Shown in pieces: positions 15,127 to 24,006 of a stretch of DNA of 32,369 nt (position 1 is the stretch's first letter; the number at the start of each line of letters is the position of its first letter). The notes under the pieces are model-generated. The model was given only the letters and a program-made list of their open reading frames with translations, ran no database searches and was not told the origin of the DNA. This DNA is from Theionarchaea archaeon (lineage in GTDB: Archaea > Methanobacteriota_B > Thermococci > Methanofastidiosales > SZ-28-30). A program made the position numbers and the translations under genes. The stretch spans positions 1 through 32,369 of the forward strand of contig JACVGW010000017.1 in NCBI GenBank assembly GCA_018992565.1, written 5' to 3'.

Positions 15127-15582
15127 TCACCACTTTTCAATGTGAGTAAGAATCACCTTGTGCAACTGATCCCTGTTCTCCCGGGTGACCTCAAAGACCT
15201 CTGCATCACCATAGGTAAAAGCATCCACAAGGTCACTTCTCACGATGAGGATGGCTGGCTCTCTGATATAGTGAAAAACATCAAGGACTCGTTCCACTTC
15301 CAGATACCCAATTTCATCATATACCAGAATATCTCCATCCCTTCCAAGACTGTCAATGATGAACTGCAGAGATTCTACACGAAAGAAAAATCTCCTGAAT
15401 TTCAATCCAGGCCCTGTTTCTGAGCAGAGTATCCTCTTTTCTCCTGTCTTCACGTCCTCAACATAGTACCCATCCTCAAACCGATCACTTATCACACCGT
15501 AGAAGTCCCTTCTGGATTCATTCACAATTCTCCGCAGCACTGTTGTTTTCCCAATTCCCCTCTCCCCTGTGATCACAATCAT
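15127..15582 (-). CDS. P-loop NTPase (NTPase_1/THEP1- or DUF2478-like)
   Basis: ITGERGIGKTT (Walker A) and LVYDEIGYLE (Walker B). ATG 15582 overlaps the EcfT stop (ATGA). Confidence 0.8.
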   Translation of the reverse strand: MIVITGERGIGKTTVLRRIVNESRRDFYGVISDRFEDGYYVEDVKTGEKRILCSETGPGLKFRRFFFRVESLQFIIDSLGRDGDILVYDEIGYLEVERVLDVFHYIREPAILIVRSDLVDAFTYGDAEVFEVTRENRDQLHKVILTHIEKW

Positions 15583-16250
15583 AGACTCCACCACCCCGCC
15601 CCAGCCAACGCAGCTGCCATGAAAAGAATCCAGGCATAATCAAACAGAGAGAATACCGATTGCTTCCTGAATGTCCTTTTCCTGTATATGCCGAAACATC
15701 GCCCCTCCATTGATAAAGTCAAAGCATCGGCTCTCTCCAGAGCCGAATATATCCACGGGAAGAAGGTATATCTCACACTGTTGAGAAGAGAAGAAACCCC
15801 TTCCAGGTTTATCCCCCTGGCCATCTGTGCCTTCTTAATCATCATAGATTCAGTACTGAAGAGTGGAATCAACCTGAAGGTGAGCACCATGGTCATGCCA
15901 TACCGGTAAGGCAGTCCACAATTCATGAGAGCGTGGGCAAATTCATTGGGGTCCTCTCGAGAAAATAACATGCCGGAAAACACAATTCCCAGGAATCTCA
16001 ACACAATACGCAGGGCATATTCCACTTTGTAAGAGAGATCTCCCTCAATAAAGAACGCGTTGATCCCGAAAATAATCACTGCAAATATCATGACAAATCG
16101 ACTCACCCGAAACCGAGTGACATACATCACAAAAGGGATGACAAAAAGCCCTGCCAGCACAACCAGGTCATCAACTATGAAAAGAATGACACAGTACACT
16201 GCCACCGTGAGGAATTTGGTGAGAGAATTCAGCCTAAAGCTTGATCTCAT
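15579..16250 (-). CDS. ecfT: ECF transporter transmembrane component T
   Basis: Hydrophobic N-terminal half, RLIPLF, AQMARG and SMEGRCF (the two conserved Arg motifs). True start is probably ATG 16250. Confidence 0.88.
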   Translation of the reverse strand: MRSSFRLNSLTKFLTVAVYCVILFIVDDLVVLAGLFVIPFVMYVTRFRVSRFVMIFAVIIFGINAFFIEGDLSYKVEYALRIVLRFLGIVFSGMLFSREDPNEFAHALMNCGLPYRYGMTMVLTFRLIPLFSTESMMIKKAQMARGINLEGVSSLLNSVRYTFFPWIYSALERADALTLSMEGRCFGIYRKRTFRKQSVFSLFDYAWILFMAAALAGAGWWSL

Positions 16251-17559
16251 GCAATTTCCCCCCTCGCAATTCAAATACACGGGTGCAAAATGCCTTGGCA
16301 ATAAAGGGATCATGCAACACCATAACACATGTCTTTCCTTTCAATAGATCCATGATCTTCTGGACATTCTCGTAGTCCTGACCAATGAAGGGTTCATCCA
16401 GGAGAATTACCGCTGGGTCATAGGAGAGAACTGAAACAATGTTGAGTCTCCTCTTCTCACCATAGCTCAATCTGAAGGGATTCCTCTCCTGGTATTCCTG
16501 CAGTCCTGCATCTGCCAGAAGTGGGGTGATATCACGTTCTACAGAAAAATTGGTTGCTGCGAAACATGCCTCTTTGCGCACAGTATTCTCAAATATCTGG
16601 TGATTCGGATTCTGGAATACGATCCCAACGTCTTTCGCGATTTCTGCAGTCTTTTTATCTCGTATGCTCTTGTTATTAATGAGGATGTCTCCTTCATAGT
16701 TGAGAAAATTCATGATACACATGAGGAGGGTAGTCTTCCCTGAGCCATTGGCACCCATGATCCCCACCACCTCATTTTCTCTCACTGTCAGGTTGACACC
16801 ATCCAGAATCAGGTCATCATATGAAAAAGTCACATTCTTGAGCTCCAGGACTGGTTCACCCACCTCCCTCATGTATCCGGTATAGTGAATATCTACAGGG
16901 GTCTCGATGCGGACTAAAGTCCCGTCCTTCATTTCATAGAAGTGGTCCGCATACTTGTAGATGTGTTTCCACTTGTGTTCAATGACAAGTGCCGAAATGT
17001 TTGCTTTTCCCTTGATTTTAGTAATGACTCGCATAATTTCCTTGGTTGTCTCCACATCCAGGTTTGAGGTGGGCTCATCAAAGATGATAACCTCCGGTTT
17101 CATGGCCAGAATGGAAGCAATGGCTACCTTCTGTTTCTCACCACCTGACAGAGAGCGGGTCTCTCTTTCTTTCAGGTGAACTCCTCCCACAATGCTCAGG
17201 GCCCAGTCTATTCTCTGCTGGACTTCTTCAGGTGAAAAACAGAGGTTTTCCAGCCCAAAGGCAATCTCATCCTCAACGTTCAGAGTACATATCTGTGCCT
17301 CGGGGTCCTGCTGCACCATCCCAATACTCTGGGCCAGTTCAAAGAGGTCCACCTCGTCAATGTTACTGCTAGAGAAGAGAATTTCACCGGTATGGAATCC
17401 AGTATCTCTCAGGAACCCCGCGATACTGAGAGCCAGCGTTGACTTGCCACTTCCACTTTTTCCTGTAATGACAATGAGCTCTCGGTCTACAGTGAGGTTG
17501 ATATTCCTCAGAATCCACCGATCGCCGTACTTGAAGCTGTAATCTCTTATTTCTATCAT
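16234..17559 (-). CDS. ECF transporter fused double ATPase (EcfA-EcfA')
   Basis: Two ABC domains: GKSGSGKS / QDPEAQ / LSGGEKQK / FDEPT, then GANGSGKT / QNPNHQ / LSYGEKRR / LDEPF. Confidence 0.92.
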   Translation of the reverse strand: MIEIRDYSFKYGDRWILRNINLTVDRELIVITGKSGSGKSTLALSIAGFLRDTGFHTGEILFSSSNIDEVDLFELAQSIGMVQQDPEAQICTLNVEDEIAFGLENLCFSPEEVQQRIDWALSIVGGVHLKERETRSLSGGEKQKVAIASILAMKPEVIIFDEPTSNLDVETTKEIMRVITKIKGKANISALVIEHKWKHIYKYADHFYEMKDGTLVRIETPVDIHYTGYMREVGEPVLELKNVTFSYDDLILDGVNLTVRENEVVGIMGANGSGKTTLLMCIMNFLNYEGDILINNKSIRDKKTAEIAKDVGIVFQNPNHQIFENTVRKEACFAATNFSVERDITPLLADAGLQEYQERNPFRLSYGEKRRLNIVSVLSYDPAVILLDEPFIGQDYENVQKIMDLLKGKTCVMVLHDPFIAKAFCTRVFELRGGKLHEIKL

Positions 17560-18509
17560 AATATCTCTATCTTTATCACGTCCTGCACCCAGTAACTCCC
17601 TTCATACCCCTTGGCTATCAGCCGTCTCTCTCTGGTAAGGATAAGCTCTTCAATCCCATCCAGTGGAAAATCCACCGCATATCCATCTTCTGCAATGACT
17701 CTCACTGTTCTTCCTCGAGGATTCGCCCTTTCCACAACAAGGGACAAGGGAATACCCGTATACTGGGCTTCGGGTTCATACTTGTACTGTCCCACCATCT
17801 CTGCTTCCACAGTGGTCTCATACTGGGAAAAATCATCATATATAAGGAAGTATGCCTGTCCTACGTCGCCTGTCACCTCAATTTTCTCCGAGGTCTTATA
17901 CACGAAAGAATAGTAGTACACGCCGCCCACCATGAAAGCTGCACATATCACCAGTGTCAGGGCTTTCCTCACGTTGTATTCCTGCTCTCTCCCTTCCACT
18001 ACATTCAGTACATTGTAGGCAAAAACACCGGCAAAAGCAACTCCTGAAACAAATGAAATGAGAGCAATCAGAGTGAAAAAGTGAATCGCATTGTAGGGAG
18101 CGAAGAACAGTTGGAAGATGAATACATTGGCTGCTGTTGCTATGCCTCCTGCAATGGAGTACGTATACACATTCTTCTTCCTCAAGACAAGGAACATCAC
18201 ATCAGCAAGAACTCCCTGGATACCGCTCAGCAGAATGACAAAAATACCAAGCTTGCCGCCGGTGAACAGCTCTACCAGCCCTTTGAGAATCCCCACCATA
18301 GTGCAGGTTCCTTCTTTTTTCACCAACCCAAAAGCCAGGATAACCCAGAATATGTGTAACCCTGCCAGAAATTGTCCTGCGCCAAAGGGGACGCCCAAGA
18401 ACCTGTTGACCAGGTTACCCAGGTATCCAATATATGTGGAACTCACTCCACCCAAAGCCGATAGTATAGCAATTTTAACCAGGTCTTTCGTTTGGAAGTA
18501 GTATTTCAT
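17556..18509 (-). CDS. ECF S-component (YkoE-like) fused to a C-terminal sulfite-oxidase-like (Oxidored_molyb) domain
   Basis: N-terminal ~175 aa: TKDLVKIAILSALGG followed by about 6 TM segments. An extra TM follows, then IEVTGDV...YTGIPLS.VV...VRVIAEDGY...RLIA....GSYWVQDVIKIE. Confidence 0.75.
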   Translation of the reverse strand: MKYYFQTKDLVKIAILSALGGVSSTYIGYLGNLVNRFLGVPFGAGQFLAGLHIFWVILAFGLVKKEGTCTMVGILKGLVELFTGGKLGIFVILLSGIQGVLADVMFLVLRKKNVYTYSIAGGIATAANVFIFQLFFAPYNAIHFFTLIALISFVSGVAFAGVFAYNVLNVVEGREQEYNVRKALTLVICAAFMVGGVYYYSFVYKTSEKIEVTGDVGQAYFLIYDDFSQYETTVEAEMVGQYKYEPEAQYTGIPLSLVVERANPRGRTVRVIAEDGYAVDFPLDGIEELILTRERRLIAKGYEGSYWVQDVIKIEIL

Positions 18510-19279
18510 AGTGGAATCACCTCGTATGTGACCTCATCCCCCACACGAACAACAATATAATGATGGAACCCCTGCCTCGTCAATGATGATCCAGCTCCCC
18601 CTGATACGATAAGGGTTGTGCCATTAATGTCTTCTTCGTACAGGTGGTGTATGTGGGAGCAGAAAACATAGTCCACATGGTATTTCTGTACAATCTCAAG
18701 GAATTCCTCTGGATGAATCATGCAGTATGTCCCTTGAGGATCCAGAGGTGGCACGTGCATGAACACAAAGGTGTGTTCAACTCCTCTCTTGAGTTGGTTC
18801 TCCAGAAATTCAAGCTGAGATTCGTTGAGAACCTTTCTCGAATTGTCCAGAATCACAAAGAGAGCATTCCTGTAGGTGATAGCATACACTCTGTCTCCCA
18901 GATGCTGGGAGTAGTAGGGGGAGTCATCATGGTTCCCACATACGTACAGGAGGGGGGGTTTCAAAACGGATACTGTCTCCAGAAATGCTTCAAAGTCGTG
19001 TGGTGTCCCTTCAAAGACGAAATCGCCTCCTCCCACTACGAACAAAGGGTCCAGCTCATTAATCTGTCCAAGCATTGTGATGAAAACCTCTGGGTGCTGC
19101 GAACCGTCAGTAGGCCTGCAATCCCCAAAGAAGACGAATGTGAATGGATAGGTATCACCAAACAATTCTCTTCCTTTGTAAACTGGATACTGGTCTCGTG
19201 TCCTCTGAACCTGATACCCTGTCATGAGGATCAGTGCTGCCACACCTACAGCAGCTACCAGCACGTACCATCTCTTCAT
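18506..19279 (-). CDS. Membrane-anchored or exported calcineurin-like metallophosphoesterase
   Basis: N-terminal hydrophobic anchor (MKRWYVLVAAVGVAALILM), FGDCR, GGDFV, GNHD, MHVP and SHIH. ATG 19279 lies 25 bp from a TTTATAA box; ATG 19291 is an alternative start. Confidence 0.85.
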   Translation of the reverse strand: MKRWYVLVAAVGVAALILMTGYQVQRTRDQYPVYKGRELFGDTYPFTFVFFGDCRPTDGSQHPEVFITMLGQINELDPLFVVGGGDFVFEGTPHDFEAFLETVSVLKPPLLYVCGNHDDSPYYSQHLGDRVYAITYRNALFVILDNSRKVLNESQLEFLENQLKRGVEHTFVFMHVPPLDPQGTYCMIHPEEFLEIVQKYHVDYVFCSHIHHLYEEDINGTTLIVSGGAGSSLTRQGFHHYIVVRVGDEVTYEVIPL

Positions 19280-19303
19280 CGATATGCTCATGTAAGCATG
19301 ACG
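19280..19303. promoter_or_regulatory. Candidate ModE-like operator, box 1
   Basis: CGATATG-ctcatgtaag-CATGACG, a 24-bp imperfect palindrome filling the gap between the minus-strand TATA (19304-19310) and ATG 19279. Confidence 0.55.
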
Positions 19304-19319
19304 TTATAAATATACCGTC

Positions 19320-19343
19320 CGATATGTCAGGGCAAGCATAACG
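19320..19343. promoter_or_regulatory. Candidate ModE-like operator, box 2
   Basis: CGATATG-tcagggcaag-CATAACG, 40 bp from box 1, abutting the plus-strand TTTATAAA (19344-19351) and covering its BRE position. Confidence 0.6.
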
Positions 19344-19381
19344 TTTATAAAGACCTCCAACCATGACACCGTGGTGATCAT

Positions 19382-20179
19382 ATGAAAAACCTTGGAATAA
19401 TGTTCATCCTGTTGGTCCTTGTACTGGGATGTATTGGACAGGAAGAAGTGGTGACAGAACCCGAGCCAGAGTACACATTGGACGTGACAGGACTGGCTCA
19501 AGGGACGATTACTGTTGCCGACCTGAGGGAAACTCCTTCAGAGTTCACCGCTATCCTGGTGAAATCTACAGGTACTGAAATCGAAAATACATGGAAAGGG
19601 AGGCTTCTCACTGAATTACTGGCACAATACAATGTGAATCCCGAATACATTTCATTTGTGGCTGAAGATGGGTACATGATCACACTCCAAATGGAGGACC
19701 TGAAGAATGCATATCTGTGCTACGAGATGGACGGGAAGCAGCTCGCTCTGGAAGACGGAGGGCCTGTAAGACTTGTCATCACCGACCAACCGGGGAAGCT
19801 GTGGATGTCGTATCTCAAAGAGATCAAGCTGATAGGAAAGGAAAATGCATTGATTATCCATGGCAAGACCAAAGTAGTCCTCGCTCTGACAAAAGAGGAT
19901 TTTGCGCGTTTTGACAAGAAAACGATGGAAGCTGAATTCAAGGGAGAAATGAAAACCTATGAAGGCATTTCCTTAACGGTACTACTGAATCAGGCGCGAT
20001 ATGAAGATGATGCAACTAGCATCAAATTCGTAGCTAGCGATGGATACACCATTGAACTGGATTTCGCTGAGGTATACGGTAACGAGGACATTCTGGTGAC
20101 TGAAGACTTCACTCTCGTTATGCCTGGATATGAATCGAAGTACTGGATGAAAGGCCTGGCGGAGATAGAGGTATTATGA
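19382..20179 (+). CDS. Lipoprotein with two sulfite-oxidase-like (Oxidored_molyb) domains
   Basis: Lipobox LVLGC. Domain 1: LDVTG...WKG.LL..LL...FVAEDGY...DGGPVRLV..DQPGKLWMSYL.EI. Domain 2: YEGISL..LL...FVASDGY...LVMPG..SKYWMKGL.EIE. Confidence 0.75.
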   Translation: MKNLGIMFILLVLVLGCIGQEEVVTEPEPEYTLDVTGLAQGTITVADLRETPSEFTAILVKSTGTEIENTWKGRLLTELLAQYNVNPEYISFVAEDGYMITLQMEDLKNAYLCYEMDGKQLALEDGGPVRLVITDQPGKLWMSYLKEIKLIGKENALIIHGKTKVVLALTKEDFARFDKKTMEAEFKGEMKTYEGISLTVLLNQARYEDDATSIKFVASDGYTIELDFAEVYGNEDILVTEDFTLVMPGYESKYWMKGLAEIEVL

Positions 20180-20895
20180 AGAGACTCTTATTATTTCTTT
20201 TTTTGATTTTAGGTCTTGGATGTATCCATCAAGTGCCCTGGACCTTTCATGTCATAGACGATGGTGTGACTGAATATGCGCTGGATTCTATCGCATCAAA
20301 AGACATCTCAACGATTGAGGAGACACTTGTTGAGAAAGAGATTAAGAAAGTCACGTGGGAAGGTGTTCTGGCCAGGGAATTCGGCGAGGGTGACACTATC
20401 AACTTTATTTCGCAGGACGGATATCTAGTCAGTATCCCATATAACGTGGATGTGATACTGGCATTCAGGAAAGAAGGAAATCCCATTGGGGAAGAAGATG
20501 GTGGACCCTTGAAGATTATCGTGGATCCCACCTATGGCTGCAAATGCAACTGGCTCAAGTATCTGAGAATTGTGGAATTCGTAGACAAAGAAGACTCTTT
20601 TTCAGTCTACGGGGATGTGTTCAACTTGCTGACCTTTTCCCCGCGGGACTTAAACTTGCACTACGGGCTGGAAGATGTCCTGGCTAATACCTCCAATGAG
20701 GTCCCTCTGGTATTTGTGCTGGACAAGGCCATAACCAAGGAAAACGCTACCACAATAACGTTTGTCACAGAAGATGGACGTTATACATACACGCTGCAAG
20801 AAATAAGAGACATGAATCCCACTCTGATTTATGACAATGGATTCTGTATCATAGAACTGGGAATAGTGAACTTGAAGGGAATCAAGATCGAATAA
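20176..20895 (+). CDS. Lipoprotein with sulfite-oxidase-like domains (second domain degenerate)
   Basis: Lipobox LGLGC, then WEGV...FISQDGY...DGGPLKIIV...YGCKCNWLKYL. Second repeat VYGDV...VPL..VL...FVTEDG. ATGA overlap with the upstream gene. Confidence 0.7.
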   Translation: MKRLLLFLFLILGLGCIHQVPWTFHVIDDGVTEYALDSIASKDISTIEETLVEKEIKKVTWEGVLAREFGEGDTINFISQDGYLVSIPYNVDVILAFRKEGNPIGEEDGGPLKIIVDPTYGCKCNWLKYLRIVEFVDKEDSFSVYGDVFNLLTFSPRDLNLHYGLEDVLANTSNEVPLVFVLDKAITKENATTITFVTEDGRYTYTLQEIRDMNPTLIYDNGFCIIELGIVNLKGIKIE

Positions 20896-21222
20896 AAACT
20901 GAGAATATGTTCGTAGTAATCTGAAAATGCTGTCATATTGTGATGGATTCACTGCTGTTTAGTTTATCATGGGACTGTAAGGCTGTCTTTACTTTTATGG
21001 CACGTAATTTGCTTGTTCTCTGTTGAAAGAAGAGATTTGCACGCTCTTATGGAGATTATCAGAGAATAACTCTGTACAGACCGTTTTCAGCAGATGGCTT
21101 TCTCTCCCACAAGAGAATGGTGTGTGAGGGTTGGTCCTGTCCAGAACCCGTGAGTAGTGCATCAGGTTGATCCAGCATCTGAACCTTTTTATATGTTCAC
21201 GAGGAAGCTCCATTGTGATTTC

Positions 21223-21942
21223 ATGATACTGAAAGAAGTATCCTGGTTGGACATAAAACCTGCAATAACAGAAGACGCTGTAGCAGTTATTCCTGTTGGA
21301 TCTACAGAACAGCACGGACCACAAAACCCTTTGGGGACAGATCATATGATTGCAGAACGCCTGGCTGCAGGAGTAAGAGAAGAAGCCATCATCACTCCCA
21401 CCGTTCCTGTGGGATACTCAGAACACCACAGACAGTTCCCTGGTACCTTGTGGGTTTCTCCCCATGTGCTTCAAGAGTATGTTTTAGGAATCTGCCAATC
21501 GCTGCAATACCACGGAATAAGGAAAATACTCATTGTCAATGGGCATGGCGGAAATACATTTCCCTTGCTGAGAGCAGCCATGAAGATGAGAGAACAGGGA
21601 GTCTTTGTAGGGCTACATGAGTGGTGGAAAGCCTGCAAAGAAGAAGATGCCCATGCGGGTTCTGGTGAAACATCATTAAACTTGTTTCTCTATGAACATC
21701 TGGTGCACATGGACAGGGCAAAAGACAATACAGCTGGATGGTCGCCTCCTCTCCATGGAACCATAATCTGGTATGATACTATTGATTTTTCTGATGATGG
21801 AACAGTGGGGAGTCCCACCAGAGCCACCAGAGGGAAGGGAGAGGTGCTGTACAGGGACGCTGTTAATCAGCTTAAGCAGACCATAGCCTACATGAAGGAA
21901 ACACCCCTGAAAGATTTGCTGTGCAAGGAGAGAGTGATGTGA
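21223..21942 (+). CDS. Creatininase-family amidohydrolase
   Basis: IPVGSTEQHGP..PLGTD, GYSEHH..FPGT, NGHGGN and HAG..ETS. ATG 21223 lies about 28 bp after TTTTATAT. Confidence 0.9.
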   Translation: MILKEVSWLDIKPAITEDAVAVIPVGSTEQHGPQNPLGTDHMIAERLAAGVREEAIITPTVPVGYSEHHRQFPGTLWVSPHVLQEYVLGICQSLQYHGIRKILIVNGHGGNTFPLLRAAMKMREQGVFVGLHEWWKACKEEDAHAGSGETSLNLFLYEHLVHMDRAKDNTAGWSPPLHGTIIWYDTIDFSDDGTVGSPTRATRGKGEVLYRDAVNQLKQTIAYMKETPLKDLLCKERVM

Positions 21943-22673
21943 CTGTGAGAATACTGGCTTTATCTGACTTTCATGGAGCTACTCATGTCCTGGATATGCT
22001 GATGGCCAGAATTGATCTGATTTCTCCTGATGTCATCGCATTCTCAGGGGACATTGTCAAAGGGCATAGCCGCGGAGACGAATGGCTCCAGGCACATGAC
22101 GAAGGAAGAACTCCTGAAGTGACAGAGGACATAAAAAACGAAGAGAAGGAAGATCTTCAATTTTATCAAGCTTTTTTCTCATTCCTGGACACGGTCAAGA
22201 TACCTTCTTTTGTGGTTCCGGGGAATATGGATGCTCCAGAAAGCCGCTTTCTCCAGGCGTGTCCTCAATCCAGACTGGTGCACCAAACCATGGTGAGAAC
22301 TCCTGTCAGCATTGCTGGCTTTGGAGGTGAGCTCACAGAAGAGCAGGAAGAAACAACATTTGTGCTCCAGTATTCCAGGGAGAGAGCCATAGAAGCCATG
22401 AAGCCATTTTCTGGCAAAGAAATCAGTATTCTCATTACCCATTCTCCACCCATATCTTCTCTCAGCAATGAAGATGGCCAGGAGAAAGGATCTGACGTTG
22501 TGAATTACCTGGTGGATCTTCTCCGCCCAGAGTATTTGGTCTGTGGGCATGCTCACAGCGCTCAGAGTTCAGAATGGATTAAGACAACGCTTGCAGTGAA
22601 TCCGGGGGCTGCGAAGTATGGTAATTATGCTGTAATAGAGGGGGATTCAGTGGAGTTCGGAAGGCTGGTTTAA
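21939..22673 (+). CDS. Icc-like metallophosphoesterase
   Basis: LSDFHG, SGDIV, VPGNMD, THSPP, CGHAH and VNPG. GTG 21939 overlaps the upstream TGA. Confidence 0.85.
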   Translation: MTVRILALSDFHGATHVLDMLMARIDLISPDVIAFSGDIVKGHSRGDEWLQAHDEGRTPEVTEDIKNEEKEDLQFYQAFFSFLDTVKIPSFVVPGNMDAPESRFLQACPQSRLVHQTMVRTPVSIAGFGGELTEEQEETTFVLQYSRERAIEAMKPFSGKEISILITHSPPISSLSNEDGQEKGSDVVNYLVDLLRPEYLVCGHAHSAQSSEWIKTTLAVNPGAAKYGNYAVIEGDSVEFGRLV

Positions 22674-23599
22674 GTTCTCCTTTGAGGGGCATAGGATCGC
22701 ATAGTGCATTCTCTGCAGGTACAGAGCCGAGGGCGACCTGCTCTTATCTTGTAACACCCTGCTTGTGATGCCAGTTCTTTGAAATAGGTGATACCCTCCT
22801 TCTCACCAGGGATATCTGGCATTCCTGCCCAGTCCACCTTACGAAGTCCACAGTCTCGTGCAGCGTCTACTACTGATTCCATCTCTTGTGTGCTACTTCC
22901 TCGTGCTCTCTCCAGTACAAAATTAGGCCTGAACGCCAGAAAAGACACAGGGGCATCTTCAGAGAGGTTTGCCAGGAATCGAGCAATGTTGACAGCTTCC
23001 CCCATCAGTCCCGGCATCACCAACACTCGAAACTCATACACCTTTTCCATAGCATGTTCTACAAGGTATTCCACATTCCGCAGGACAGGACCCACCCGCG
23101 CACCTGTCAAGAGGATGTGTACCTCATCGGTAAAGGCCTTGATGTCGAACGTGATCGAGTCTGAAAACGTGAGTATTCTCTCCAGCGAGGCTTCTGTCAT
23201 GAATCCATTTGTATCGAAGTTCACCTTTGCGTTGACAGATAGAGCCGCTGCTTCTACCCAGGGTAGAGAACACGTGGGCTCACCTCCCGTGAAAAACAGC
23301 CGGTCTGCCCCAATCTGCCTTCCCTCTATGGAATTCAAGGCAGCTACTCCCATTTCTGCCCACTCTTCAGGAGGTATGTACTTCCCTCTTTCCTGCAACA
23401 TGGAGAGAGGATAGTTCTGGCAGCCCAGACAGATGAAATTGCATCCTTCCATGAAGGCGTCGAAACTCGCTGGAGGCGCTGGATGCAACATGGAGACCAC
23501 TACTCGGGGTATTCCGATGCCACATATTCCAGTCTCACCAGATATCCTGTTGACCTTGCATCGCCATTCACATAACTGGCAGGACTCCAGTTCTTTCAT
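22670..23599 (-). CDS. Radical SAM protein (PflX/activating-enzyme-like)
   Basis: CNFICLGCQN (CxxxCxxC), FTGGEP, DTNG and FDIKA. Extra N-terminal CQLCEWRC..CG and C-terminal CTCREC motifs. Confidence 0.88.
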   Translation of the reverse strand: MKELESCQLCEWRCKVNRISGETGICGIGIPRVVVSMLHPAPPASFDAFMEGCNFICLGCQNYPLSMLQERGKYIPPEEWAEMGVAALNSIEGRQIGADRLFFTGGEPTCSLPWVEAAALSVNAKVNFDTNGFMTEASLERILTFSDSITFDIKAFTDEVHILLTGARVGPVLRNVEYLVEHAMEKVYEFRVLVMPGLMGEAVNIARFLANLSEDAPVSFLAFRPNFVLERARGSSTQEMESVVDAARDCGLRKVDWAGMPDIPGEKEGITYFKELASQAGCYKIRAGRPRLCTCRECTMRSYAPQRRT

Positions 23600-24006
23600 A
23601 GATCCAGCAGGAAGAGCCCTGTATCCTCATCCAGTGCTCTGCTCAAGCCCGGGACATTCGCTATGAATATCTCCAGCGTGGCAGATGCCTCAGCACTGAA
23701 TACATGACCGCCCTTGCAGTTACCATCCTTATCTCCTATAACTGCATGCAAGTGTACAACAAGATCACCGTCTTTTTCTGCAATGTTGCCCATGCATGAC
23801 ACCACTTCTCCCCTGCATTCAACCTGCAGGTAGTGCTTCCTCTCCATGTCAAAGTATCCTAGGATGGCCTTCTGAACAGCGCCGATGGCCTGCAGTGTGC
23901 CAGATGAAACCTTCTCCCTGATGCATACTTCCTTTACAGACTCAATGAGTTCTTCTCCCTTGAACAGGCGCATGACGATAGTATTCTCTTTTTTTGAATA
24001 TCGCAT
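23596..24006 (-). CDS. PPC/DUF296 domain protein
   Basis: RL.KGEELIES, AIGAV, EVVSCMGNI, HLHAVIG and GGH. Confidence 0.9.
   Translation of the reverse strand: MRYSKKENTIVMRLFKGEELIESVKEVCIREKVSSGTLQAIGAVQKAILGYFDMERKHYLQVECRGEVVSCMGNIAEKDGDLVVHLHAVIGDKDGNCKGGHVFSAEASATLEIFIANVPGLSRALDEDTGLFLLDL

Follow-up and report, generated by a model that had tools for sequence, protein, structure and literature searches.

A candidate ECF importer for the tungsten/molybdenum pyranopterin cofactor in AOR-rich archaea in which moa and moe genes were not found

How can an archaeon that encodes many tungsten- or molybdenum-dependent enzymes obtain their pyranopterin cofactor when the genes for its synthesis are not found in its genome? 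This question is raised by a seven-gene locus on contig JACVGW010000017.1 of a Theionarchaea archaeon (assembly GCA_018992565.1). Positions 1 to 32,369 of the forward strand of this contig were analyzed; the whole stretch of 32,369 nucleotides (nt) is called the window, and its genome is G000 in our numbering of genomes (G) and loci (L). The locus encodes an energy-coupling factor (ECF) transporter, an exported metallophosphoesterase, a P-loop NTPase and the two lipoproteins LP1 and LP2. A first-pass annotation, made from the sequence alone, had read it as an uptake or salvage system for a cofactor of the molybdenum cofactor (Moco) or tungsten cofactor (Tuco) type. Herein, this reading is supported by protein fold, gene neighborhood, riboswitches of bacterial homologues and phyletic pattern, from which we infer the substrate. 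The system very likely serves the acquisition of the tungsten or molybdenum (W/Mo) cofactor in some form. The favored reading, which we regard as probable, is that of a dedicated ECF importer that salvages the pyranopterin cofactor of W/Mo enzymes, most likely as the metal-loaded mononucleotide (Tuco/Moco).

The distribution of the system was compared with that of Moco biosynthesis. The searches for MoaA, MoaC, MoaE, MoCF_biosynth and MoeA_N each found their own family in 11 to 13 of 14 control genomes. In G000, no match was obtained to the MoaA C-terminal domain, MoaC, MoaE, MoCF_biosynth (MoaB/Mog and the MoeA core) or MoeA_N. The same genome carries ten genes of the aldehyde ferredoxin oxidoreductase (AOR) family, a formate dehydrogenase alpha subunit (TIGR01591, 864 bits) and other PF00384 matches. 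Similarly, the MoaA C-terminal domain, MoaC and MoeA_N were not found in G004 and G001, the latter being the genome of locus L011 and apparently identical with G012. MoaE and MoCF_biosynth were not found in G036, G010, G015 and G004, and G010 and G015 are 99 % complete.

All 34 genomes of the window's order are AOR-positive, with 1-10 AOR genes each. The fusion of the ECF substrate-capture (S) component with an additional C-terminal domain, called the S fusion below, is present in 13 of them. Both MoaC and MoeA_N are missing from 11 of these 13 carriers; among the 21 non-carriers, MoaC is present in 18 and MoeA_N in 20. Only one genome of the order, G013 (87 % complete, 6 % contaminated), is without everything. 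The split between carriers and non-carriers repeats at several depths: between genus g1 and genus g2 in family f1, in all of family f2, and between G012/G015 and their g5 congeners. In the sister family, the S fusion was found in 0/97 Thermococcaceae genomes and MoaC in 91/97. In a Thermoplasmatota order with 49 genomes, all AOR-positive, the S fusion occurs without MoaC in 26, MoaC occurs without the S fusion in 16, and neither occurs in 3. The expected correlation with Mo/W enzymes and missing moa/moe genes was found, and the system complements the absence of moa/moe genes in AOR-rich archaea.

The last genes of the cofactor pathway bear on the form that is imported. Contig C109 of G000 (L087:2435-4313) carries fdhD, a mobA-like gene and mobB side by side, despite the lack of earlier Moco genes. 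The best NCBIfam matches of the mobA-like product are all MobA (99.9 bits, under the cut-off), and mobB scores 113 bits, over the cut-off. The dinucleotide step is kept while cyclic pyranopterin monophosphate (cPMP) synthesis, molybdopterin synthase, adenylylation and metal insertion are lost, which indicates import of a metal-loaded mononucleotide cofactor. An earlier, metal-free intermediate, either cPMP or molybdopterin, was considered as the substrate, with the CpdA/GpdQ-like phosphoesterase acting on the (cyclic) phosphate. In favor of this, the phosphoesterase is best matched by families of cyclic-nucleotide and diester phosphodiesterases, no other intermediate of the pathway is as stable as cPMP, and the downstream enzymes are present in bacterial carriers. 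However, MoaE, MoCF_biosynth and MoeA are missing from the archaeal carriers, so that neither sulfuration of cPMP nor metal insertion could proceed there by the known route. Import of such an intermediate seems quite improbable. No ModA, WtpA or TupA was recognized in G000 by the PF13531 and PF12849 searches; the matches that these searches returned in G000 were rejected as such proteins, being of PstS type and next to PstC/A/B. In G010, G015 and G004, these searches gave single matches each.

The protein fold points to pterin binding. Five segments of the locus, namely the C-terminal 115 residues of the S protein and two segments each of LP1 and LP2, align with common D-G-Y and C-terminal Trp motifs. 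When a 12-sequence profile of the S family was compared with the PDB, the N-terminal part matched YkoE (5EDL, 3e-15), and the C-terminal part matched SoxC/SorA (6e-6 to 3e-3, with SoxC 2XTS at 6e-6). The AlphaFold2 model of the S fusion (pLDDT 82) consists of a helical S domain (helices 7-171), followed by a long helix (180-204) and a beta domain. Foldseek matched this model to 5EDL (1.1e-7, 22 % identity to YkoE), SorA (4.4e-5), SoxC (~1e-4) and also YedY, as well as to five PruR entries named 'pterin binding protein' (1.4e-4 to 3.8e-3). The AlphaFold2 model of LP1 (pLDDT 87.6) was matched to SorA (2.8e-8) and to PruR 7KOM (5.9e-8, TM 0.73 normalized to PruR, rmsd 3.3 A over 136 columns), and its superposition on YedY gave an rmsd of 2.1 A over 150 columns. 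Chicken sulfite oxidase is also among the Foldseek matches of the models. LP2 was aligned to the LP1 family profile by hhalign with 98.9 % and E 2.1e-17 over residues 1-229, so that both domains are covered; its C-terminal copy is the most degenerate of the fold copies. The five copies of a sulfite oxidase (SUOX)-like fold that the first-pass annotation had recognized are upheld by the shared motifs and by the profile, Foldseek and hhalign comparisons. The comparison of predicted structures with YedY and sulfite oxidase confirmed the SUOX fold, and the nearest structure in size and shape is PruR 7KOM.

The five domains had been placed outside the cytoplasm, and the predictions agree. The signal peptides of LP1 and LP2 end in a lipobox-type L-G-C, the Cys of which is invariant in 21/21 homologues, and the N-terminus of the phosphoesterase is a hydrophobic anchor. 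A twin-arginine (Tat) motif was looked for in the signal peptides of the exported proteins in the window sequence, and none was found. S components have both termini inside. Since a seventh helix is added to such an S component, the fused domain would face outward. All five domains are predicted to be extracytoplasmic.

In the excerpts available of the PruR study (PMC11194511), PruR is described as a degenerate SUOX fold without the Mo-ligating Cys, with the Trp of a P-W motif in its place. The pterin of A. tumefaciens PruR lies between Tyr104 and Trp160 with a hydrogen bond to Asn102, and the shortened cleft fits small pterins (same source). In a phmmer alignment of the first LP1 domain with PruR 7KOM of V. 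vulnificus, D-G-Y stands opposite N-D-Y, and a Lys stands opposite the Trp of the P-W motif. The N-D-Y of 7KOM is probably the equivalent of the pterin-contacting Asn102/Tyr104, and the Lys of LP1 would sit at the position of the Mo-ligating Cys of SUOX enzymes. D275, Y277 and W307 of the S-fusion family are invariant or nearly so, as are D96/G97/Y98, W141, D220/G221/Y222 and W255 of the LP1 family. No Cys is present anywhere in the fused domain or in the LP1 C-domain. The P-W motif of PruR is absent from the window domains, and the likeness to the Asn/Tyr/Trp cleft is drawn from the D-G-Y/N-D-Y alignment and the C-terminal Trp. Two traits of SUOX enzymes, the Mo-ligating Cys and a Tat signal or cytoplasmic location for cofactor loading, are lacking in these domains. 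For Cys-less exported SUOX domains, loading with cofactor in the cytoplasm is impossible. Judged by their residues, these exported domains keep a pterin site and are probably binders rather than enzymes.

The S component is a YkoE homologue by both profile and Foldseek comparison, it is labelled a thiamin/HMP permease by JGI, and the ATPase is a fused double ATPase. These features would suit a thiamine/hydroxymethylpyrimidine (HMP) importer like YkoEDC, in which the additional domains would be unrelated accessories. The identity to YkoE is low, and the fused domain has a pterin-binding fold, both of which speak against such an importer. The regulation of the bacterial homologues bears on it more directly. 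The 36 bacterial loci were scanned against Rfam at gathering thresholds (batches of 20, 8 and 8). The scan gave 17 matches to the Moco RNA family RF01055 in 13/36 loci and no thiamine pyrophosphate (TPP), cobalamin, tetrahydrofolate (THF), flavin mononucleotide (FMN) or preQ1 riboswitch in any of the 36. The other Rfam matches in these loci are one T-box and one c-di-GMP-I aptamer, located elsewhere in two loci. TPP or B12 control of homologous loci, which had been named as a finding that would speak against cofactor uptake, was not observed among them. The thiamine reading was rejected on the lack of a TPP riboswitch, and we consider that it has hardly any chance of being right.

The RF01055 aptamer lies on the operon strand just before the first gene of the block in 10 loci (L040, L058, L049, L064, L029, L048, L073, L076, L071 and L056), and the S gene follows it immediately in L076 and L071. 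This count of 10/36 is a lower bound, as many other loci are short or start inside the block. The P3 stem is missing in 13/13 aptamer alignments displayed. P3-less Moco RNAs track tungsten-cofactor metabolism according to the part of Regulski et al. (PMC2408646) that was available, and the E. limosum study (PMC11725836), in its available part, gives the missing P3 as the signature of Tuco-responsive switches. The window itself gave no match when scanned against Rfam. The earlier description of the system as Mo/W-regulated therefore holds for the bacterial homologues, with Moco riboswitches in 13/36 loci, and was not borne out for the window itself.

The gene block is conserved across genomes, as had been proposed, and the order phosphoesterase, S component, double ATPase and T component (EcfT) recurs in archaea and Bacillota. 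The protein collection contains 511 homologues of the S fusion at E<=0.001, and the database entries most similar to it carry the labels Theionarchaea or Methanofastidiosia. A scan with one genome per species gave 260 S-fusion relatives, and the best 80 of the 260 loci were kept for the neighborhood work. There are 42 archaeal loci among the 80, from Theionarchaea/Methanofastidiosia-type 'Thermococci', Thermoplasmata, Hadarchaeota, a 'Halobacteria' metagenome-assembled genome (MAG) and Methanomassiliicoccales. The other 38 are from Bacillota or unlabelled (Syntrophomonas, Pelotomaculum, Anoxynatronum, Dethiobacteria and others). Neighbors were counted only in loci with enough flank, which for the double ATPase means >=1500 nt. 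The double ATPase lies next to the S gene, downstream, in 35/35 archaeal and 29/29 other loci, EcfT is in the neighborhood in 31/31 and 19/21, and the phosphoesterase is directly upstream of the S gene in 30/36 and 15/28. An APH/RIO-like kinase adjoins EcfT in 21/28 archaeal and 9/20 other loci, and the NTPase was counted in 5/28 and 0/20. This kinase forms one BLAST cluster in 32/80 loci, with weak matches to PF01636 and PF01163, and it replaces the NTPase in most other lineages. An association of the NTPase with the system is restricted to the window's clade (cluster 3, 7/80 loci).

A single BLAST cluster unites the phosphoesterases, S components and lipoproteins. Free secreted SUOX-like proteins with one to many domains often neighbor these loci, and LP1 orthologues (E<1e-100) adjoin the S gene in 12/12 carrier genomes of families f1-f3. 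The SUOX-like domain exists as a separate protein, as part of the transporter and, in at least one relative, as part of the phosphoesterase, as would be expected of a substrate-delivery module. The flanks of the f2-type loci are housekeeping genes (PurP-like, SRP54, aTrm56).

Several points weigh against salvage of the intact cofactor. The gene absences are based on six-frame hidden Markov model searches in MAGs, with a completeness of 88.4 % and a contamination of 1.6 % for G000, and the phyletic counts come from related, non-independent genomes without phylogenetic correction. G018 and G029 carry the S fusion, MoaC and MoeA_N together, and the S fusion and MoaC co-occur in 4 genomes of the Thermoplasmatota order, one with a partial MoaC. 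The bacterial carriers G002 and G003 have MoaA, MoaC and MoeA. Among 81 Syntrophomonadales genomes (the order of G003), MoaC is present in 10/10 full-length carriers and in 2 genomes with domain-only matches. As bacterial carriers keep de novo synthesis, the system there is at most a supplement. Pairs like LP1/LP2 were found in three Thermococcaceae without ECF genes that make Moco. Calcineurin-like metallophosphoesterases bind their metals through the motifs DxH (motif I), GD, GNHD, H and GHxH. In the phosphoesterase of the window, GD, GNHD, a lone His and S-H-I-H are present, and motif I keeps the Asp with Arg/Gln in place of the His, as in its relatives. Its activity is uncertain because motif I has the Asp but no His. 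The riboswitch alone cannot tell the cofactor from the metal, because Tuco riboswitches also govern tungstate transporters. The protein P0171 (430 aa) is a TupA-like tungstate binder (PF13531/PF12849) fused to a C-terminal short SUOX-like domain. Lastly, according to the PruR literature, the truncated cleft of PruR fits small pterins and probably not the whole Moco, and the window domains are similarly short.

Retained bacterial biosynthesis, tungstate riboswitches, P0171, the Thermococcaceae pairs, the PruR cleft and a Vut_1 neighborhood in G031 (below) keep two other readings alive. One of them is import of the metal, as tungstate or molybdate or as one of their sulfidic or complexed forms, with the SUOX-like domains and the dimetal phosphoesterase as oxyanion binders. 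Tungstate and molybdate are phosphate mimics at such dimetal sites, and P0171 joins a tungstate binder with a SUOX-like domain. In L056, L071 and L076, the ECF operon stands beside modA-permease-ATPase genes and two TupA-like genes with their own aptamer. Retention of biosynthesis in bacterial carriers also suits metal import, and P3-less Moco riboswitches also precede tupABC in the available part of the E. limosum study (PMC11725836). However, archaeal carriers are without MoaA, MoaC, MoaE, MoaB/Mog and MoeA, so that their 1-10 AORs would still lack a cofactor if only the metal were imported. The fold matches that of a pterin site, as do the conserved D-G-Y/Trp residues, the Mo/W ABC systems already adjoin the operon in the three loci named, and the accompanying kinase would have no role in ion uptake. 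Metal import is judged unlikely.

The other reading is import of another pterin or pterin-like base, such as a neopterin/monapterin-type compound, a folate or methanopterin precursor or 7-deazaguanine. It is suggested by the small pterins bound by PruR-type truncated SUOX domains. It is also suggested by G031, where two SUOX-like secreted proteins adjoin a Vut_1 gene (PF02592, 'putative vitamin uptake transporter'; L084:3224-5968). Against it, the riboswitch class is Moco/Tuco, with THF or preQ1 riboswitches in 0/36 loci, and the distribution of the system is complementary to MoaC and MoeA specifically, though not exclusively, since among pterin pathways the profiling covered that of Moco. Import of another pterin is considered distinctly unlikely. 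Neither this reading nor metal import explains AOR-rich genomes without moa/moe genes.

SUOX-like secreted proteins were also observed beside another transporter type. In L082:1290-8392 (G065, Thermococcaceae), a pair like LP1/LP2 lies beside a Peripla_BP_2 protein, a FecCD permease, an ABC ATPase and a DUF364/DUF4213 protein, and the Peripla_BP_2 protein has a weak SorA-like N-terminal stretch. 'Fe ABC-type' transporters behind Tuco riboswitches are described for E. limosum in the available part of that study (PMC11725836). Type II importers like that of L082 may handle W/pterin species rather than iron. The Vut_1 neighborhood of G031 suggests that transporters of more than one class use the SUOX-like domain as their extracytoplasmic binder.

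For salvage of the W/Mo cofactor, the following mechanism is proposed. The outward Cys-less SUOX/PruR-like domains, two per lipoprotein, one on the S component and elsewhere one on the phosphoesterase, would capture the pterin moiety. At the surface, the exported metallophosphoesterase would act on the cofactor in a phosphate ester or dinucleotide form. The YkoE-like S component, EcfT and the double ATPase would carry the cofactor inward, where a nucleotide-dependent cytoplasmic enzyme would act on it, namely the P-loop NTPase here and the APH/RIO-like kinase in most other lineages. MobA and MobB would turn part of the imported pool into the dinucleotide for formate dehydrogenase, and the AORs would use the mononucleotide directly. 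In this scheme we infer what is bound, how it passes from one domain to the next and which reactions the phosphoesterase, NTPase and kinase catalyze.

The phosphoesterase matched the CpdA-type family NF008359 at 1.8e-10, under the cut-off, and its closest solved relatives are the 'Phosphohydrolase' chains 2DXL/2ZO9/3D03 (PDB match 1.4e-6). From these matches, its nearest families appear to be diesterases. It could possibly trim dinucleotide forms to the mononucleotide, or it could strip a phosphate before transport, with rephosphorylation inside by the kinase or NTPase. Long phosphoesterases of ~430-580 aa occur outside the window's clade, in Thermoplasmata and Bacillota. A C-terminal PF00174-like domain was found in 1/2 long phosphoesterases scanned, that of L019 (3.1e-5), and none was reported for L044.

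The system was further compared with known systems. An S component of about six membrane helices (PF09819), a T component and two ABC ATPase domains are encoded together, and this assigns the transporter to the ECF class. YkoEDC, the group I ECF transporter for thiamine/HMP of Bacillus subtilis, is alike in its co-encoded PF09819 S component, fused double ATPase and CbiQ-type T component. In contrast to YkoEDC, the S component of the window system is extended by a seventh helix and by a SUOX/PruR-like domain predicted to face outward, and the system adds the exported phosphoesterase, the SUOX-like lipoproteins and a kinase or NTPase. Its bacterial homologues are under Moco/Tuco riboswitches, not TPP riboswitches.

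PruR (7KOU, 7KOS, 7KOM, 7KP2, 7RKB) is alike in being a small secreted, Cys-less, truncated SUOX protein (Foldseek TM 0.66-0.73 normalized to PruR), and the conserved C-terminal Trp is common to PruR and the window domains. The window domains differ in being tandem or transporter-fused, and phosphoesterase-fused in at least one relative, in having Lys instead of the P-W Trp, and in their genomic links, which are to the W/Mo cofactor. PruR signals to the diguanylate cyclase/phosphodiesterase DcpA and binds monapterin/neopterin-type pterins, as given in the available part of PMC11194511. No DcpA-type GGDEF/EAL gene was found in the window or among the recurrent neighbors of related loci. The Moco-binding fold is common to the window domains and the SUOX molybdoenzymes (sulfite oxidase, SorA, SoxC, YedY/MsrP), whereas the window domains have ~110-125 aa and no Mo-ligating Cys, dimerization/heme partner domain or Tat signal.

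Salvage of NAD as nicotinamide riboside (NadN/PnuC/NadR) pairs a surface phosphatase/nucleotidase, an importer and a cytoplasmic kinase. The logic of the present gene set is alike, in that a transporter is combined with an exported phosphoesterase and with a kinase or NTPase of the cytoplasm. We know of no such phosphatase-importer-kinase scheme for the pyranopterin cofactor and of no molybdopterin kinase. To our knowledge, Moco/Tuco is generally held too labile for sharing, and every prokaryote with molybdo- or tungstoenzymes is assumed to make its own. In the literature searched, which excluded subscription journals and supplements, neither a Moco-riboswitch-controlled ECF system nor a characterized prokaryotic Moco/Tuco importer was found. 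A regulon survey has no Moco uptake category in its available part (PMC3766115), and a 2026 review, in the excerpts at hand, states that how pterins cross membranes is unknown (PMC13259868). The system belongs to a known class of transporters; its accessory architecture is new, and so, most likely, is the class of its substrate.

A wider picture may be drawn, for which we see about even chances. Prokaryotes would import the intact W/Mo pyranopterin cofactor, and this ECF system would be the first recognized importer. Whole lineages of anaerobic archaea, i.e. the Theionarchaea/Methanofastidiosales relatives and the Thermoplasmatota order, would be obligately auxotrophic for Moco/Tuco, and cofactor scavenged from the community would serve up to ten of their tungstoenzymes. 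The phosphoesterase and the kinase or NTPase would form a dephosphorylate-import-rephosphorylate or dinucleotide-trimming cycle. If true, the former cycle implies an as yet unknown molybdopterin kinase. The living of AOR-rich archaea without any moa/moe genes would be explained, and the pyranopterin cofactor would join the traded 'public-good' vitamins of anoxic communities. The inference of Mo/W metabolism from MAGs would be altered, a concrete gene set for cofactor-uptake tests would be supplied, and many 'molybdopterin-dependent oxidoreductase' annotations without a catalytic Cys would gain a biological role.

The gene calls were tested by Pfam and NCBIfam profile searches of the open reading frames (ORFs) of the window (Table 1). 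All 7 ORFs were found where the first-pass annotation had placed them around one divergent promoter, 5 leftward and 2 rightward of a 90-nt gap, and the gene identities that it had given were confirmed. The PF00174, PF09819 and PF03266 searches that it had proposed all gave matches. Its tight coupling of the genes was read directly in the ATGA start/stop overlaps at ATPase/S, S/phosphoesterase and LP1/LP2. The NTPase probably starts at ATG 15582, which would overlap the EcfT stop as a fourth ATGA. The true start of EcfT is likely ATG 16250, 17 nt within the ATPase gene, giving 223 aa as in the L001 orthologue. The NTPase also matched NF010248 (2.2e-17, far under the cut-off), and the double ATPase scored 319 bits against ECF_ATPase_1 (TIGR04520), with a cut-off of 315.

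Table 1 Features of the locus in the window, with the supporting profile match or note.
Feature	Coordinates	Strand	Evidence or note
P-loop NTPase (NTPase_1/THEP1-like)	15127..15594	-	last gene of leftward operon; Pfam PF03266, E 2.1e-15
ECF T component (EcfT/CbiQ)	15579..16328	-	PF02361, 2.1e-17
Fused double ECF ATPase A-A', 441 aa	16234..17559	-	two ABC_tran stretches, 1e-57
S component (YkoE-like, six helices) + seventh transmembrane helix + C-terminal Cys-less SUOX/PruR-like domain	17556..18509	-	ABC_cobalt PF09819, 3.6e-19, residues 8-125
Membrane-anchored exported metallophosphoesterase (export predicted)	18506..19291	-	Metallophos PF00149, 3.8e-11
Divergent promoter region	19292..19381	.	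two direct copies of AAGCATRACGTT element, each then A/T-rich TATA-like box
Lipoprotein LP1, two tandem Cys-less SUOX/PruR-like domains	19382..20179	+	Oxidored_molyb PF00174, 6.5e-20
Lipoprotein LP2, divergent two-domain LP1 paralogue	20176..20895	+	PF00174, 1.3e-7

A promoter element (CGATATG, ~9 nt, CATAACGTTTATAAAG) recurs between both operons in L001-L003, L005-L008 and L012, and it is weaker in L010 and L011. The window carries this CGATATG/CATAACGTTTATAAAG element twice. The TATA-like box TTTATAAA is palindromic and lies ~27 nt from the start codon of the phosphoesterase in compact loci, and a single TTTATAAA box may serve both directions. From its conservation, the element is a candidate regulator site.

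The remaining content of the window is ordinary for archaea: FrhB-like proteins, a class I aminoacyl-tRNA synthetase, an Fe-ADH-family protein and UPF0179; no tRNAs were found in it. Behind LP2, at 21157-24006, are a creatininase-family gene, a Metallophos_3 gene and a radical SAM gene (these three at 21157-23599), followed by a PCC-domain gene. The creatininase-family, Metallophos_3 and radical SAM genes and the upstream ferredoxin-like genes had no BLAST match in the loci of other clades, nor had the PCC-domain gene in the related loci, and the closest locus, L001, stops short of the downstream genes. These genes were not counted as parts of the system.

Further genes were observed around the riboswitches of the bacterial loci. 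In L056, L071 and L076, a third aptamer, also P3-less, precedes a gene for a secreted protein of 1400-1500 aa (L056:12270-17023, L071:11817-16523, L076:12260-17008). These large proteins form one BLAST cluster with a large secreted protein of L044 (L044:1039-5553), which has no riboswitch directly ahead; this sole copy scanned against Pfam contains SUOX-like domains and Reg_prop repeats. In the same three loci, a DUF364 gene ('putative heavy-metal chelation') lies between the modABC-like genes and the riboswitch-controlled TupA/ECF genes (L056:4744-5517, L071:4433-5266, L076:6818-7579); a member of this family also adjoins the lipoprotein pair of L082. Finally, a second, unfused ECF S component (PF12822, ~178 aa) is encoded directly behind its own Moco riboswitch in L044:13227-14010 and L073:14481-15029, and in L044 it adjoins a xanthine-dehydrogenase-family gene. 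This S component may be another substrate-capture unit of an ECF system related to the W/Mo cofactor.

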